From the NCBI GenBank assembly GCA_026391255.1, contig JAPLDU010000069.1, positions 367 through 64,366 on the forward strand: DNA of 64,000 bases, written 5' to 3'. A program made the position numbers and the translations under genes. Below are positions 2,578 to 21,704 of the stretch, piece after piece. Position 1 is the stretch's first letter, and every line of letters starts with the position of its first letter. The stretch comes from Bacteroidia bacterium. Its GTDB lineage: Bacteria; Bacteroidota; Bacteroidia; Bacteroidales; JAPLDU01. Under the pieces are notes generated by a model that saw only the letters and a list, made by a program, of their open reading frames with translations, had not been told where the DNA came from and ran no database searches.

Positions 2578-2979
2578 TCAAAAATAATGAATATTACAAG
2601 AACCTCCAATCCCAAATCTCCCATACCCCTTAGCTTTCTTATCAGCCACTTCGACGATTATATCTACCTCATGGGCATTCACATTTTTGCCCCGGAAGTA
2701 ACCGTCTTTAGTGGTATGATAAATGAAAATAAATGATGTACTTGGATTGTCCTGGCGGAGTTGGCGGAGATTGTCCAGGTCGAAACAAGCACGGGAAACG
2801 CTGTCAATGAAGACATAATCATAAGCTGAAAGATTGTCCGGGATTTCTTCTGAAACGTACAGGTTTGGGTCAATTGCCCGAAGACCTTCCACTTTTTCCT
2901 TCAGGGTGTAGCCGAATTTTTCTTCAATGGCAAAGTAGAGAACTTTTCCGTGATGTTTTGCCTGGTGTTTGGCAAAAGT
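2578..2979 (-). pseudogene. 3' fragment of a paralogue of the element's RecA-like ATPase (lacks Walker A)
   Basis: ~2615-2979 aligns at constant offset 4054 with ~6669-7033; shared peptide GKVLYxAIEEKFGYTLKEKVE...FIDSVSRA...FIFIYHTTK; homology stops abruptly at ~2979. Confidence 0.85.
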
Positions 2980-3094
2980 GATTATTCCGGACAAATTGTA
3001 CCACCCTTTCCATAGCAAAGTGCACCAAATGGTCAATTTAGATACCTGTACTTGGCTGGACGCCAACTCTTTGGCCGTTTATCGCAAATGTAGG

Positions 3095-6637: not shown

Positions 6638-7198
6638 TTAAAATATTTCCATTTCTCCAAATGATGCAAACCTCCCATTTCCCTTAGCCATCCCATCAGC
6701 CACCTCTATGATAACGTCCACCTCATGGGCATTCTCGTTTTTGCCCCGGAAGTTACCTTCTTTGGTGGTGTGGTAAATGAAGATAAATGATGTTCGGGGA
6801 TTGTCCTGGCGAAGCTGGCGGAGATAGTCCAGGTCGAAGCCGGCACGGGAAACGCTGTCAATGAATACGAAGTCGTATGCTGATAGGTTGTACGGGACTG
6901 CTTCTGAAACATACAGGTTAGGGTCAATTGCCCTGAGCCGTTCCACTTTTTCCTTCAGGGTGTAACCGAACTTTTCTTCAATGGCACAGTAGAGAACTTT
7001 TCCATGATATTTGGCGAGGTGCTTTGCAAAGTCAATGCAGAGGGTAGATTTGCCGGATTTGGGAAGTCCATAAACCATTGCTGAAAACCCAACGCAGGGA
7101 TCACCGATCAGTTCCCGGTATTTTCCCTGGAGACCGATGGTTTCAAATTGCATCTGGGCAAGACGGGTACTGGAAATAACGCCGGAATCTGCTTTCAC
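6638..7198 (-). CDS. RecA-superfamily (Sms/RadA/KaiC-like) P-loop ATPase; probably the C-terminal part of a -1 frameshift fusion with 7195..8169
   Basis: Walker A GLPKSGKST, Walker B FVFIDS, HTTKEG..RG...AHEVD; weak GTG start; frame is open back to the A9 run at 7237-7245. Confidence 0.8.
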   Translation of the reverse strand: MKADSGVISSTRLAQMQFETIGLQGKYRELIGDPCVGFSAMVYGLPKSGKSTLCIDFAKHLAKYHGKVLYCAIEEKFGYTLKEKVERLRAIDPNLYVSEAVPYNLSAYDFVFIDSVSRAGFDLDYLRQLRQDNPRTSFIFIYHTTKEGNFRGKNENAHEVDVIIEVADGMAKGNGRFASFGEMEIF

Positions 7199-8169
7199 AG
7201 CAGTTTTATCCGTCTGATTTTTGCTACTGGCCGGACTTTTTTTTTACTACCGGCTTTGGCAATCCCCATCAGTCCGTTTAGTTCTGATTTGCTGATCTGT
7301 GGTGATTTGGTTTTTTCAGTCAGGTAATCATTCAGGGCATTGTAGATCAGGTTCAGCTTGTCAGCATAAGGATCATTCTTGATGATCTTCATGTTCTTAA
7401 CTGCTTTGGTAAGCTTGTCAAATAAAACTTTTGCCTTTTCCTTTACCCCGCTTTTACCATGCAGGCTGATATACTGTTTGATGTAGGTTACCGATAACAT
7501 GGTTTTTTCGCTGTAGGCAATCTCATGATACTTAGCCAGGGTGTCTTTGTCAATGGATATTGCAATACTATCACCCATCTTCTGATAACAGGATATAAGC
7601 TGGTCCTGTATGTTCTCAATTTCTTTGGCATACGGGGAGGTCTTCCGGATTCGTTTTTCCAGGATGGCTTTTTGCAGGGTGTTGATAAAAGACAGAATTT
7701 CTTTCTGTGTCCTGGTCTTGCCGTCAAGCAAAACATAACGCCTGATAAAAGCAATCTCAGGTTTTATCTTTTCCACCTTTTCAGCAGTATCCTGTTTCTT
7801 TGCCTTCTTTGCCTTTGGCTGTTTCTTTGGCCTGGCAGGTTTTGAAACTTTTGGTTTCTTTTCCTTTTTCTCAGCCTTCACATTCTTTTCAGGTTTTGCT
7901 TTCGGTTGCCGGCTTTTTTGTTTCGGCTTTTTAACTACCGGTGCAGGAACTTCGCTTTCTTTTTCCGGTTTTACTTCGTTCTTTTCAAGATAGTCATCTA
8001 ATTTTTCCATGTAGGAATCCACCACTCTGCGGATGTTTTCGTTGGAATGATATGCCGACCAGTTGTTTTGTGAAGCTCCTTGTACCAGTTTGTTCCCGTT
8101 TTTCAATGCTTCCGGTAAATCAGAAAAATTGATGCTTCGGGTAACTTCAAAATAATTACTTGTATTCAT
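7195..8169 (-). CDS. Basic, Lys/Pro-rich linker protein of unknown function
   Basis: 324-aa ORF with ATG start, K/P/E-rich central linker, overlaps the ATPase ORF by GTGA. Confidence 0.7.
   Translation of the reverse strand: MNTSNYFEVTRSINFSDLPEALKNGNKLVQGASQNNWSAYHSNENIRRVVDSYMEKLDDYLEKNEVKPEKESEVPAPVVKKPKQKSRQPKAKPEKNVKAEKKEKKPKVSKPARPKKQPKAKKAKKQDTAEKVEKIKPEIAFIRRYVLLDGKTRTQKEILSFINTLQKAILEKRIRKTSPYAKEIENIQDQLISCYQKMGDSIAISIDKDTLAKYHEIAYSEKTMLSVTYIKQYISLHGKSGVKEKAKVLFDKLTKAVKNMKIIKNDPYADKLNLIYNALNDYLTEKTKSPQISKSELNGLMGIAKAGSKKKVRPVAKIRRIKLL
7237..7245 (-). other. A9 slippery run 1 (candidate -1 frameshift or transcriptional slippage site)
   Basis: AGT AAA AAA AAA GTC; the -1 frame reads KKSPASSKNQTDKTAVKADSG... 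into the ATPase and is closed by TAA immediately before the run. Confidence 0.7.
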
Positions 8170-8204: not shown

Positions 8205-8648
8205 TTAATTGAGTTGTAATAGTTCAAGTTCCAATTCGAGGGCAAGGGCTTCGAGTTCCAGTTCACTGAAATTTTGATTGTAAGATTCAGGTTTGTTCTC
8301 AGCTTCCGGTAGCATGTGTCCGCCTTGGTTGATCATGTCTTCTGCTTTATAAGCCAGCAGGTAATTGAGCTTTGCAAATTCAGTTGCCCTGTCCTCTGAG
8401 GTTTTGCCTTCCACCTGGAGGGCGGATTTCTTTTCCTCGATCTCACGGGTAAGCGACTGCCAGCGTGGAGACCTGTTGTCCCCTTTGTACAGTTCCGATT
8501 TCTTTTGGACAGCTTCTTTGTCCAAGTTGTACGATTCGAGAACCTGCGAAAGGTCACTGTCAATGGAGCATCCTTTTGGTTTCAGGATGGTGCGCTCTGT
8601 CTTTCTTACCTTTGATACATATTCCTTAAAATAGCCGATGTACCACCT
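8205..8648 (-). other. In-frame continuation of the helicase ORF beyond an amber codon (C-terminal ~147 aa)
   Basis: After TAG at 8649-8651 the same frame reads RWYIGYFKEYVSKVRKTERTILKPKGCSIDSDLSQVLESYNLDKEAVQ... to the stop at 8205 with no further stop. Confidence 0.7.
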
Positions 8649-11600
8649 CTAGCTGAAGTAAATACCGAGGGTTCCATAGCTGTTTTCAATTTTTCGCCCT
8701 ACAGAAAGGATTTCCTTGTCTTCCTGGGTACTACCATTAAGCAAAGTTTCAATTTCTTCCTTGAGTTCTTTTGCCTTCTTTCGTTTTTTCTGGGTCAGTT
8801 CATCTTCTTTTTCGGCTGCTTTATTTCCCATTTTAAGATATTCAGAGTTCAGTAATGACTGGTAAAAACTGCGAATAGCCTTGATTGACTCATCCCGGTA
8901 ATTGTTATAATCGTCAATATCGGATTGAATATCTTTTATCATCTCAATGGCACGGTTCACCTTTGCAATCTCCCTGTTTAACTGTTCTTTTTCCTGGTCA
9001 AAGAATATGCGTACCAGGCGGTCAACATCTGTGATCAGCGCCAGCTTTATTTCTTCAGGGTTTAGGCTCTCCAGGTCAAGCACATTGCCCCGGTCTCCCT
9101 TGAACCAAATGTCATTGATACGTGAAGTCTTTTCTTCCAGTTTTTGAAATACAAATACATCCATCGAGTCCTGGACAAGAGGCATAACAATCCGCACATA
9201 TCCGAACTGGTTACCCTGTCTCCAGATGCGCCCTTCGAGCTGCCGAAGATCAGTCGGGTTCCATTCAGGGTAACAGTTGTAAATCACCGTTCCACGTTTT
9301 TGCAGGTCAATCCCTTCCCGGATGGTGGCAGTACCAATAATGACCTTTACCACACCGTCGAGGAATGCTTCTTTGATTGTTTCTTTCCGGTTATCATTAA
9401 TATCAGAATTGATAATTTCAACCTCGTCTAATTTGGTACGATTAAACATCACACCGGTCTTAAAGCCTACTTCTGCTTCCAGGTACTTTTTGATCATCGG
9501 GAAAAACTGTTTGCCCCGGTTCATATAGATCACCTGCCCGGAACAATCATTGCCGGTTGTTTCATGCCATTGCTTTACAGAGCGTATGCACTCCATCACA
9601 TAATTGATCTTGGGGCTTTCACGGACAAACTCACGGTAATCTTCAGGGTGTCCATTCAGAATGAAAGGGGAGAGGGCATTATCGAGGCTGTGAGCTAATG
9701 CACGGAACAGGTTTCCCATATCGAGTTTGCCCTGGGTAGAGCTTTTAGCCATTTCCACAATCTTGTTCTGGTTGATTCGTTGTTTGGCAGTCATATTGAT
9801 ATAGGTCAGTATCTGCCGTTCCTGGCTTAACCGGATGGATTTGCCGTTGATAGTATCGTACAAAAGTGGCAGGTTAATCTTTCGTGGACGGACCACCCCG
9901 GCTTCTTCACCTGTCCGGTACAGAATATGATTGTATATAAGTTTCTGCAATACCCGTCGGTTGGTAAAGGATTTGATGACTTCCTTTTCAACGATCTCTT
10001 CCTTGTAATTGGCTGCCCATTCTACGGTTGGCAGAACAAACAGGTCAAAAAAGGTGTCAATATTGTAAATCCCGCTTTTATACAGGCTTTCATGGGCAAC
10101 CAGAGAGAGCATGGAGTAAATTTCCAATGGCGAATTGGTAAAGGGGGTAGCGGTAAGCAGCATGGTATTTCGTCCAAACTTGCGCTGGATGTAATTCAGG
10201 ATCAGGAATGCCTTTTGACCGGTTTCTGAGGTGGCCGATTGAATGTTGTAGCGTTTGTTCCCTTCTTCATCGGCTTTTACCTGAGAAAACACGTTTTTGC
10301 AACGGTGGGCTTCATCAATCACCACATAATCAAAACCCAGCACATCCACATCACCGACTGTGTCTTTAAGCCCGACACCAATCATTTCACGAAACTTCTG
10401 GTATTCGATTTCCTTGTCCCTTGCCGTCTTTTCCTTACTTTGTCCGAGTATGTTCACCAGCTCGGTAAATAGCTCGTCCGATACCGACTGGCCAAAGCCA
10501 AGCCTTTTGAAACCTTCATAAGTTACGATAGTGACACTGTTACCGGGAACCGGTGCAGAAAGGTTGATTTTCTTTGTAATATCCGATCCCATGTTGAACC
10601 AGTCATTCAGGGTAATCCCTGTATGTGACAGCATTCCCGAAACAAACTCCTTAGACTTATTATCCTCAAAGCCAATGATCTCATTAATCCATTTTTTATA
10701 GGTGGCTTTAGGAACTACAATAAGTGGTCTTTTGCACTTCCCTGAATAGAGACAATGTGCCAGTGTTGCTATACTGGCTGCTGTTTTTCCGGCGCCGACG
10801 TCCAACGCAAGAATGCCACTTCCCATTGTTTCCATAAAGGCGATACTCTCACGCTGAATGTCCGTCAATTGTAGGATTCCACTCTTAAAGGTGGCTGAAC
10901 ATTCAAAACCAATCGGAACCCTCTGGTATGATATGTCGCTTTGCCCATTGTATAGCCTGTTCCAGGAATAATCTAATTTTTCCTGGTCAGAAAAAGTCAG
11001 GACTTCATATAAAAATCTTGAAAACAGTTTTTCCCCTTCAATCCTTGCATTGGCCTTGAGTTCAGATTTTTCCTCTTTTGTTAGCTTGTCGTCCCTGAGC
11101 GGGCGACCGGCAATGTAGTAATCAGCAATATCAATGGCGCTTGATTTTTCAAAGTCAGAATCACTGTTCAGGGTAAACAGCCACTTGACAAATACCTGCT
11201 GAAGCGAATAGCGGTTCTGACCGTCAAAGCGAAGATTGATCTTCTCCTTTTCCCGGTCACGCCTTCTCTCTACTTTGCCATTAACCTTTTTAAGCTGTTC
11301 GGCATTTTCAACATCCATGTATTCATCACGTACTTCTGAGATTGAAAAGACATCGGTATCACTGGCAAAGTCAGATATAGCGGTAATGATGGGTCGTTCC
11401 TTCTCATCCGGGTTAGTAACAGTTAGCAATATTGGTTTTGCTTTAAGAATCGTCTCCCGGTGACTGTCATATACTGCCTGACCCCAACGGGACAGGATTG
11501 TATCCTTGTCTTTTTCTAATTGCAGCTCCCTGTCATACATGTTTCCATAGGTATAGACAGGGAAGGGAACCATTTCACCATCCATGAAAAACAAAGCGTT

Positions 11601-12143
11601 TTTCTGTACCAGTTCTGATAATTCACTTTCACCTGCATGAGCCAGTCCACGAACTAATTTGCAATCGCTACCGGGGACATAGTACAATCCGTCATTATTG
11701 CGGTAGATGTAGTATTTCTCCTCATCTGCATAGTCATGGGTTTTAATGTATTTGCCAAGCTCTACGCCTTTTTCAACGCTGCGGATGTCTCTGAAATGAT
11801 TGTCTTTTATTGTAGTTGCCGATGTAGTAACCACAGTTTCAATATAACTGCCTCCTTTGATGAAGTATTTCTCCCAGCCGGTCATTGGTACACCAAGAGT
11901 GCGTTTGTACCAGACCCATGCCCTGATCTCATCCGTGGTGATCCCCTTGTTGTAACGCTCTACCACATCGGCAAAGCTCATAGTTTTTCTCTGTGTCTTT
12001 GCAACATCACCCAGACCGTTAAAATAATGGGCATCAGCAAGCACTTTGCTGATAATGTCTTTGTTGGCATCTATATAGTTGGTAACAGTCGGAGTAAGTT
12101 CTCCAAGTCCGCTGAAACCTGATATTCCGTTTAAATAGCTCAC
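8649..12143 (-). CDS. SNF2-like superfamily 2 helicase, DarB-type
   Basis: LDVGAGKT, VIDEAHR, LTATP, EGIDLQ, QLEGRIWRQGN motifs. Confidence 0.85.
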   Translation of the reverse strand: MSYLNGISGFSGLGELTPTVTNYIDANKDIISKVLADAHYFNGLGDVAKTQRKTMSFADVVERYNKGITTDEIRAWVWYKRTLGVPMTGWEKYFIKGGSYIETVVTTSATTIKDNHFRDIRSVEKGVELGKYIKTHDYADEEKYYIYRNNDGLYYVPGSDCKLVRGLAHAGESELSELVQKNALFFMDGEMVPFPVYTYGNMYDRELQLEKDKDTILSRWGQAVYDSHRETILKAKPILLTVTNPDEKERPIITAISDFASDTDVFSISEVRDEYMDVENAEQLKKVNGKVERRRDREKEKINLRFDGQNRYSLQQVFVKWLFTLNSDSDFEKSSAIDIADYYIAGRPLRDDKLTKEEKSELKANARIEGEKLFSRFLYEVLTFSDQEKLDYSWNRLYNGQSDISYQRVPIGFECSATFKSGILQLTDIQRESIAFMETMGSGILALDVGAGKTAASIATLAHCLYSGKCKRPLIVVPKATYKKWINEIIGFEDNKSKEFVSGMLSHTGITLNDWFNMGSDITKKINLSAPVPGNSVTIVTYEGFKRLGFGQSVSDELFTELVNILGQSKEKTARDKEIEYQKFREMIGVGLKDTVGDVDVLGFDYVVIDEAHRCKNVFSQVKADEEGNKRYNIQSATSETGQKAFLILNYIQRKFGRNTMLLTATPFTNSPLEIYSMLSLVAHESLYKSGIYNIDTFFDLFVLPTVEWAANYKEEIVEKEVIKSFTNRRVLQKLIYNHILYRTGEEAGVVRPRKINLPLLYDTINGKSIRLSQERQILTYINMTAKQRINQNKIVEMAKSSTQGKLDMGNLFRALAHSLDNALSPFILNGHPEDYREFVRESPKINYVMECIRSVKQWHETTGNDCSGQVIYMNRGKQFFPMIKKYLEAEVGFKTGVMFNRTKLDEVEIINSDINDNRKETIKEAFLDGVVKVIIGTATIREGIDLQKRGTVIYNCYPEWNPTDLRQLEGRIWRQGNQFGYVRIVMPLVQDSMDVFVFQKLEEKTSRINDIWFKGDRGNVLDLESLNPEEIKLALITDVDRLVRIFFDQEKEQLNREIAKVNRAIEMIKDIQSDIDDYNNYRDESIKAIRSFYQSLLNSEYLKMGNKAAEKEDELTQKKRKKAKELKEEIETLLNGSTQEDKEILSVGRKIENSYGTLGIYFS

Positions 12144-21131: not shown

Positions 21132-21704
21132 TTAACTCGTACTTTTTTTTTCCACAATAAATTGTAGCAGGGCAGCCGGTACTCTTTTTAACAGGTATTG
21201 TTTGAACTCTGCAACACTGATCTTTCCGTCCTGGTTAAAATCAATGGCTGAGTTTTGTTTTGCCACAGCCTGTGCCGGTATGCGAGAAGTCTGGAAGATA
21301 AAGTCATCGGGTTTACCGATTGCAGCCGGAAAGAATGTAACCAGGTATAGGTCCTGGAAGCTCTTGATCTTACCCGTGTAGCTTTTGAAGTATTGGTACA
21401 CGTAATCAAGTTGTTCAACGGCGCTCATGCCATACAGATCACTGTTTGAAGTGCCCATTCCTTTGGCCGTATCAGGCATGAACTGCAAAAGACCGGTTGC
21501 CCGGTTATTGCAACGTGTCAGATCATCGTCCGGGTCACCGGGTTGTTTGTTTACAGCCTGTGCATTCAGGGAACTCTCCATGTACATGACCATCATCAGC
21601 CAGTCAGGGTTGATTGATAGCAGGTTGCAGATATTGCTGACCTTGGCTTCAAATTCCGAGGAGTTTTCTCCTTTGTTTGTTTTAAGATTATCAATTAGTA
21701 TCAT
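21132..21704 (-). CDS. Lysozyme-like lytic transglycosylase; a -1 shift at A9 would extend it to 21070 with a TM anchor
   Basis: MYMESSLNAQAVN...ATGLLQFMP motifs; ends ...IVEKKSTS directly after the A9 run. Confidence 0.85.
   Translation of the reverse strand: MILIDNLKTNKGENSSEFEAKVSNICNLLSINPDWLMMVMYMESSLNAQAVNKQPGDPDDDLTRCNNRATGLLQFMPDTAKGMGTSNSDLYGMSAVEQLDYVYQYFKSYTGKIKSFQDLYLVTFFPAAIGKPDDFIFQTSRIPAQAVAKQNSAIDFNQDGKISVAEFKQYLLKRVPAALLQFIVEKKSTS
21143..21151 (-). other. A9 slippery run 2
   Basis: GTG GAA AAA AAA AGT; the -1 frame gives KYELSIGGLILIGFGARYLYNKLK then TAA at 21070-21072, 6 nt before the next ATG. Confidence 0.7.

Follow-up and report, generated by a model that had tools for sequence, protein, structure and literature searches.

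On the minus strand of a 64,000-nucleotide stretch of Bacteroidia bacterium DNA (contig JAPLDU010000069.1, positions 367 to 64,366; hereafter the window, whose own numbering is used for all unprefixed positions), an open reading frame (ORF) for a protein of 324 amino acids (aa), termed ORF1, runs into a second frame that encodes a RecA-like ATPase. The two frames meet at a run of nine adenines (A9) inside an integrated, virus-like element. The features of this junction are as follows:

7195..8169, minus strand: ORF1 (324 aa), obtained by standard decoding, ending in ...LNGLMGIAKAGSKKK followed by VRPVAKIRRIKLL and the stop
7237..7245, minus strand: A9 run, putative slippage or -1 shift site, 0 frame AGT AAA AAA AAA GTC
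6638..7236, minus strand: -1-frame ORF, consisting of an acidic/polar linker and a RadA/DnaB-like RecA-fold ATPase
7244..7249, minus strand: TAG TAA closing the -1 frame up to the run (TAG 7249-7247, TAA 7246-7244)
7195..7197, minus strand: 0-frame stop TGA, 14 codons past the run, 3' limit of the shift window
7196..7198, minus strand: GTG that shares bases with the ORF1 stop (GTGA) and might initiate a 186-aa ATPase, either independently or by re-initiation

The minus strand reads ...GCC GGT AGT AAA AAA AAA GTC CGG CCA... at this point, and the observation that an A9 run joins ORF1 to an ATPase in its -1 frame is confirmed. In the -1 frame, a TAG is located just before the run and a TAA overlaps it (as they do in the related loci L195, L177, and L179), so that any fusion of the two parts has to arise at or after the run. 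From the run onward the -1 frame is open (KKSPASSKNQTDKTAVKADSGVISS..., read as KKSPASSKNQTDKTAVKADSGVISSTRL...) until the stop at 6640-6638, and its sole start ahead of the conserved ATPase domain is the GTG at 7198. The addition of one A or a -1 event at the A9 is predicted to yield a protein of 510 aa. Only three A/T runs of at least nine occur in the whole window, and this one has the properties of a transcriptional slippage site, i.e. about nine or more A or T on the coding strand at a frame junction. Within the 0-frame AAA AAA AAA, the A_AAA_AAA heptamer also lies in phase for a -1 ribosomal shift. An earlier sequence-only reading of the locus had placed the run 14 codons before the ORF1 stop, described the -1 frame as blocked by the TAA and then open into the ATPase, and recognized the -1 shift pattern in A_AAA_AAA. 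All of this holds (the TGA occupies 7197-7195), with the TAG as an additional block. The GTG is indeed the weak start that it had been called, and it is GTA in L195, so it is not conserved.

Closest relative and selection on both frames

The closest relative of the gene, P0390 (locus L195/L196), is represented by two independent assemblies and shares 74% nucleotide identity with the window. Its junction (GGT AAT A9 GTC CTG CCG ... CTT CTG TAA) has the same T-A9-GTCC and the same register. The two copies align without an indel from the run to the ATPase domain, and their 0-frame tails are homologous and of equal length (KKKVLPVTKPRLIKLL against KKKVRPVAKIRRIKLL, each followed by the stop). Between window and L195, the Nei-Gojobori method gives a synonymous divergence (dS) of 2.0 and a nonsynonymous-to-synonymous ratio (dN/dS) of 0.08 for ORF1, and values of 1.6 and 0.09, respectively, for the -1-frame ATPase. 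By these estimates the ATPase is as constrained as ORF1, and both are under purifying selection, which has been strong on the ATPase frame all through the divergence. Since the split junction is shared at nearly saturated dS, the split arrangement predates the divergence of the two copies.

The frame break could alternatively stem from a homopolymer assembly error or from a recent inactivating frameshift in a decaying element, in which case the fusion would be the true or ancestral single gene. Such an origin would agree with the fused state of most database homologues and with an in-frame TAG in the adjacent helicase gene. It conflicts with L195, where the same junction and register recur in independent assemblies at 74% nucleotide identity, and with the dN/dS of 0.09 on the -1-frame ATPase; the L195 junction and the dN/dS values of both ORFs together speak against assembly error as well as recent pseudogene formation in the window. 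In addition, split forms make up 27 of the 59 closest clusters (see below), and the genome carries no general excess of homopolymer frame breaks. This explanation is largely refuted and has to be regarded as highly improbable.

The genome assembly consists of 161 contigs (4.08 Mb, 39% GC) and contains about 120 distinct homopolymers of at least nine bases. A genome-wide screen for long ORFs that change frame at such a run returned 20 candidates, nearly all of them ordinary stop-to-ATG gene junctions; besides 7237-7245, two to three could be frame breaks. As about 120 runs produce just these two to three other candidates, a systematic homopolymer error is not apparent. The screen gave no further clear recoding candidates, an A10 at C117:12959 (minus strand) aside. 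There, an ORF of ~200 codons stops 4 codons past the A10 and ~240 further codons are open in another frame, which makes it a possible further frame break at a homopolymer.

Fused and split forms across the gene family

A search with the conceptual fusion finds more than 1,000 relatives. The best 120 are almost all single proteins of ~475-535 aa that span both parts, and their junction (...LNGLMG..QKKSP.LNG...) agrees with the -1 reading of the window, KKKSPASS, and not with its 0-frame tail. From Bacteroidota genome bins and metagenomes, 160 homologue loci (L017-L176) were fetched, of which 147 were parsed; their proteins are 47-65% identical to the window. A frame break at the junction is present in none of these 160 loci, which is explained by their retrieval by score with the best 80 kept, a ranking that disfavors split genes and was later corrected by using just the N-terminal ORF as the query.

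About 100 of the 147 parsed fused loci carry an exact A9 at the junction, in frame, as C AA AAA AAA A GY. The run persists through amino acid changes (EKKS, QKKT). The serine that follows it is always encoded by AGY, although AGY makes up 31% of the serine codons in these genes. Among 11 sequences less than 80% identical to each other, only 3 of the 139 columns with an invariant residue are uniform in codon, whereas the codons of the run are all fixed. These codon patterns indicate that the nucleotides of the run are conserved beyond the demands of the encoded amino acids. In both shifted frames of the fused loci, stops follow 4-29 codons on. In minor fused subgroups the run is in frame but in a different phase (RKKKV..., A9/A10, some decayed to A6-A8), and another small subgroup has PKNKG without a run. 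The relative P0032 reads GSKKKSP in frame, presumably on an A10. A separate frame break was seen in L094 (DLPC01000010.1, 3171-3278), within the basic low-complexity linker at query residues 57-105 and away from the junction run.

The split forms become visible when the 324-aa ORF alone is used as the query. Against 1.8 billion cluster representatives it gives 733 matches, and the best 150 of these include twelve N-terminal-only proteins of 290-324 aa, eight of which end just past KKK. The DNA of all eight was examined; with the window and L195/L196, they make up ten split lineages. The junctions of the eight fetched forms read:

L177/L178: AGT A9 GCT
L179: AGTAGT A9 GTCC
L180/L181: GT A10 CGC
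L182: C A10 GTCCGG
L183: C A10 GTCA
L184: G A10 GCC
L185/L186: C A10 TGG
L187/L188: C A10 GTAA

In all ten lineages the two parts meet at an A9 or A10 and the ATPase is in the -1 frame; in each of the eight fetched forms its ORF opens at the run. Six of the ten have A10, while T-A9-G is common to the window, L195/L196, L177/L178, and L179. Several lineages are backed by independent assemblies or samples. L183 and L187 show A_AAA_AAG followed by a nearby stop. For L182 at least, the A10 layout cannot differ from the in-frame C-A9 form by a single A, given that SP after the run is already read in the 0 frame there. Among the 59 closest 90%-identity clusters of the 324-aa ORF, 27 are N-terminal-only and 31 fused. 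The former are 289-327 aa long and end in ...LNGLMGIAG.G[SGN]KKKV, a basic tail, and the stop.

The sequence-only reading had raised two comparative questions, namely whether homologues are fused in one ORF and whether they conserve the A-run. Both are answered in the affirmative: fused homologues are single ORFs of ~475-535 aa, and the run is conserved at the nucleotide level in ~100 fused loci and ten split lineages. Instead of separate genes that lack a conserved run, the family consists of homologues that are either fused or split at that run.

Split and fused forms do not separate in a maximum-likelihood tree but are interleaved. Two deep groupings are otherwise all split, one of L180/L182/L187 with the fused P0123 nested inside, the other the L184/L185 pair. 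The interleaving of in-frame and out-of-frame registers would be expected if the tract were a contingency locus, at which the gain and loss of A's during replication toggles the fusion ON and OFF in subpopulations, and homopolymers of 9-10 are hypermutable. A switching tract should nevertheless occur in many lengths, and the length here is constant per layout: A9 recurs in ~100 fused loci, it is kept in the window and L195 despite a dS of 1.6-2.0, and the deep clades are uniformly split with A10. At a second A9 site of the element (described below), nearly all of more than 110 homologues are likewise in the same "off" register. DNA-level phase variation is, on this record, quite unlikely.

As a placement of the shift, the window tail VRPVAKIRRIKLL was also considered as a homologue of the in-frame insertion KKKVAKHLHKIYE... 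of "type II" fused forms, which would put the shift downstream of the run. This idea was rejected because the post-run GTCCGG aligns with the SP codons of type I and because the tail is homologous to that of L195.

Probable recoding at the run and comparison with known systems

Taken at the level of sequence comparison, the A9 is quite probably a selected recoding site between the N-terminal part and the ATPase of one gene. The earlier proposal of programmed recoding, with a short protein and a ~500-aa fusion as products, finds support in the conserved run, the ten split lineages, and purifying selection. Standard decoding of the window copy would yield the 324-aa N-terminal protein, and a fraction of expression events would yield the 510-aa N-terminal-ATPase fusion, whose predicted junction is ...GSKKK-SPASS... 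within the peptide ...AGSKKKSPASSK....

Several observations weigh against this interpretation. A stimulatory RNA structure, as would accompany ribosomal frameshifting, does not seem to be present around the run: the 77 nucleotides after it (z -0.18) and the 55 nucleotides before it (z -0.72) fold no better than shuffles, and the GCCGG/CCGGC pairing on either side of the run has no counterpart in L177, L179, or the fused loci. The in-frame TAG of the neighboring helicase gene could hint at some decay of this element copy. The two parts can also work as separate polypeptides, as a distant homologue (G039, L009) is cleanly divided into two genes, with an ATG start, a 17-nucleotide spacer, and no A-run; the ability of separate polypeptides to function does, on the other hand, fit a need for the N-terminal protein alone. 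Finally, the GTG at 7198 overlaps the ORF1 stop in the classic coupling arrangement GTGA, so a separate 186-aa ATPase is possible.

The last two points belong to a reading in which the locus holds two separate genes, with the 186-aa ATPase made from GTG 7198 by termination-reinitiation and the A-run left as the remnant of a lysine-rich linker. L179, where an ATG in the ATPase frame occurs close to the ORF1 stop, would suit it as well. The start codon is, however, not what the split forms share. GTG 7198 is GTA in the closest relative L195, and no ATG or GTG lies between the run and the [VI]I.S..L motif in L177, L180, L182, L184, or L195, while the motif itself is conserved in fused proteins as well as in split forms, where it lies in the -1 frame. 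Common to all split forms are the A9/A10 run, which is present in all ten lineages and fixed at the nucleotide level, and the -1 direction, with the -1 frame opening exactly at the run. The downstream frame appears to be functional and devoid of a conserved start of its own, as is expected behind a slippage site. Two independently translated genes are an unlikely account of the locus.

For the recoding interpretation, the likeliest event would be the addition of one A by RNA polymerase on the A9 template; alternatively, a -1 ribosomal shift on A_AAA_AAA would give the same fusion product. In the fused half of the family the register is reversed. There, the A9 is in frame, the fusion would be the default, and slippage would lead to a truncated N-terminal protein, since both shifted frames stop within 4-29 codons. 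That slippage takes place, at which rate, and by which machine, we infer from the comparison of sequences. RNA polymerase slippage is favored over -1 ribosomal frameshifting for the following reasons. The run is kept at 9-10 while a ribosomal site needs seven; in the fused forms even the first and ninth A are kept (CAA and not CAG, AGY and not TCN). A stimulatory RNA structure is not detectable. The host dnaX, in turn, has a Thermus-type A10 layout. In reporters, ~40% shifting was measured on a run of nine A's (PMC3711429), and both reporter and natural cases document efficient slippage on 9-A runs (PMC3711429, PMC5009743).

The host dnaX gene (C128:830-2554, plus strand) has its A10 at codon 368 of 575 (NIELKKKTGLIE). 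Its shifted frames stop after 2 codons with one A fewer and after 4 codons with one A more, which is a tau/gamma-type layout. The A10 represents the Thermus-type layout that has been predicted for Bacteroidota.

In Thermus thermophilus, dnaX produces tau and gamma by transcriptional slippage on nine A's (Larsen et al. 2000, as summarized in PMC5009743 and PMC3711429). The likeness to the present family is close: nine A's at a domain boundary, close stops in both shifted frames, and a full-length and a truncated product, a layout that is exactly that of the fused members. The differences are that dnaX encodes a clamp loader, whereas the present gene combines a helical N-terminal part with a RadA/DnaB-like ATPase, that the register of the window is reversed so that the long product needs the slip, and that the present case is known from its sequence. 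Two-ORF dnaX genes with an A10 have been predicted in Chlorobi (Antonov et al. 2013, PMC3711429), and a "reversed" dnaX has been described (PMC5009743). Here, too, two ORFs are joined by poly-A, with a short default product, a long product by slippage, and both layouts in one family. The Chlorobi gene differs in being a chromosomal replication gene and not one of a mobile element, and in the present family the two layouts intermingle on the tree, with about equal shares among close relatives.

Mobile elements themselves offer a second parallel. The orfA-orfB transposases of IS3/IS630-type insertion sequences use -1 frameshifting on A_AAA_AAG/A_AAA_AAA or transcriptional slippage (PMC5009743). 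They share with the present gene the setting in a mobile element, an upstream product next to a transframe fusion, an A-rich site, and the -1 direction; the present gene encodes no transposase and has no detectable downstream stimulatory structure. Its strict A9/A10, in place of a heptamer, is a better fit to RNA polymerase slippage. In Shigella, mxiE and spa13 of the type III secretion genes undergo slippage on T9/A runs (PMC5009743). These cases resemble the present one, and its second A9 site, in a run of nine and a C-terminally extended product from a fraction of transcripts, and differ in that the proteins, hosts, and biological setting are unrelated.

Poly-A slippage of the dnaX kind is already known; new for it is, as far as the well-supported sequence comparison indicates, this widespread mobile-element gene family with both registers. 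In the output of annotation pipelines, the gene is in some cases a single "AAA family ATPase" and in others a pair of unrelated hypothetical genes, the ATPase being given an arbitrary start. Recognition of the recoding site would correct the gene model in hundreds of Bacteroidota element copies and add a natural case of poly-A recoding outside dnaX and insertion sequences, and the two registers, side by side in one family, constitute a natural experiment on the evolution of isoform ratios.

The second A9 site, protein parts, and gene context

The coding strand of the operon has just one further A9, at 21143-21151, near the end of another gene:

21132-21704, minus strand: SLT lysozyme-like ORF with an A9 at 21143-21151, ending in EKKSTS and the stop right past G-A9-GT

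More than 110 homologues of this protein (54-76% identity) are almost all 190-195 aa long, with a C terminus of EKKS followed by 0-5 residues (most often two). In two relatives inspected at the DNA level (L189, L193), the junction reads G/C-A9-GT with the 0-frame stop three codons on. Behind the run, the -1 frame specifies a hydrophobic helix that ends in basic residues and is conserved (KKKFEIGIGGFVLIGIGAAWLY... and KKKFQLGIAGFLLLGIAGTWLY... in the relatives, KKKYELSIGGLILIGFGARYLY... in the window). In the window, it consists of a transmembrane helix and a basic tail (KKKYELSIGGLILIGFGARYLYNKLK, followed by the stop) that ends just before the ATG of the next gene. Since the peptide in the shifted frame is conserved, it provides direct comparative evidence of -1/+1A recoding on A9 in this element family. 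Recoding at this site would add a membrane anchor to the lysozyme-like protein.

Together, the junction A9, the second A9, and the A10 of the host dnaX suggest that slippage on A9/A10 may be a routine mechanism of expression in Bacteroidota and their mobile elements. A bolder proposal, which is plausible but somewhat short of probable, is that a widespread, unrecognized lineage of integrated virus-like elements of Bacteroidota uses RNA polymerase slippage on A9/A10 as a general device in at least two genes, one for the replication-type N-terminal/ATPase protein and one for the lysozyme-like protein with its added membrane anchor. The register of the tract would flip between lineages as a heritable dial of the default isoform and thereby reset the isoform ratio.

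ORF1 is composed of an N-terminal helical domain, a basic low-complexity linker that is disordered, and two similar helical repeats; its N-terminal part has no informative structural match. The -1 ORF carries the ATPase motifs GLPKSGKST (Walker A), FVFIDS (Walker B), and HTTKEGNFRG...HEVDV, and the ATPase of the window retains all residues that are invariant in the family. Pfam matches of the domain, to AAA_24/AAA_25, are weak. A profile search matches the C-terminal domain to RadA (5lkm/8rxc, E 1e-4), and the best Foldseek matches of the ATPase domain are RadA, DnaB, RecA, and Rad51. The fold comparison used the AlphaFold model of the fused homologue P0001, with a mean predicted local distance difference test score of 75. 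By motifs, profile, and modeled fold, the C-terminal domain is classed as a RecA-superfamily ATPase of the RadA/DnaB kind, and the label "RecA-like ATPase" of the earlier reading proves apt. The succession of helical N-terminal domain, linker, and predicted RecA-fold C-terminal domain recalls DnaB-type hexameric helicases. Phage T7, with gp4A/4B, offers an earlier example of a replicative helicase that is produced in two sizes.

The gene is an uncharacterized core gene of an integrated, virus-like element of Bacteroidota. Its surroundings follow a conserved order of an SNF2 helicase, methyltransferases, and RadC and then the ORF1/ATPase gene, which sits at one end of the element and adjoins variable cargo or an integrase. 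PHROG matches of the neighboring genes are weak. A search of the IMG/VR viral contigs for relatives of the gene found none, which implies that the carrier is not a recognized virus.

The SNF2 helicase gene on the minus strand of the window contains a single in-frame TAG (8649-8651) between the ORFs 8649..12143 and 8205..8525. The 106-aa ORF past this TAG is in the same frame and aligns well with the C-terminal ~140 aa of intact homologues (1208-1309 aa; compared in L177, L180, L184, L185, and L195). The TAG stems from a nonsense mutation or an error, or else it serves as a read-through site.

Partial copies of the 3' end of the ATPase gene, ~70-84% identical to it, lie at ~2590-2982 (minus strand) of the window, a few kb downstream of the full gene. 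They bracket cargo that comprises a 659-aa HATPase_c protein and a 302-aa protein. Other partial copies are found at G000 C115:628-843 and C115:4723-4875, at L063:6383-6607, and on G031 C51. The occurrence of similar ATPase 3' fragments in other genomes suggests that recombination within this gene, the element's last conserved one, leads to an exchange of cargo.

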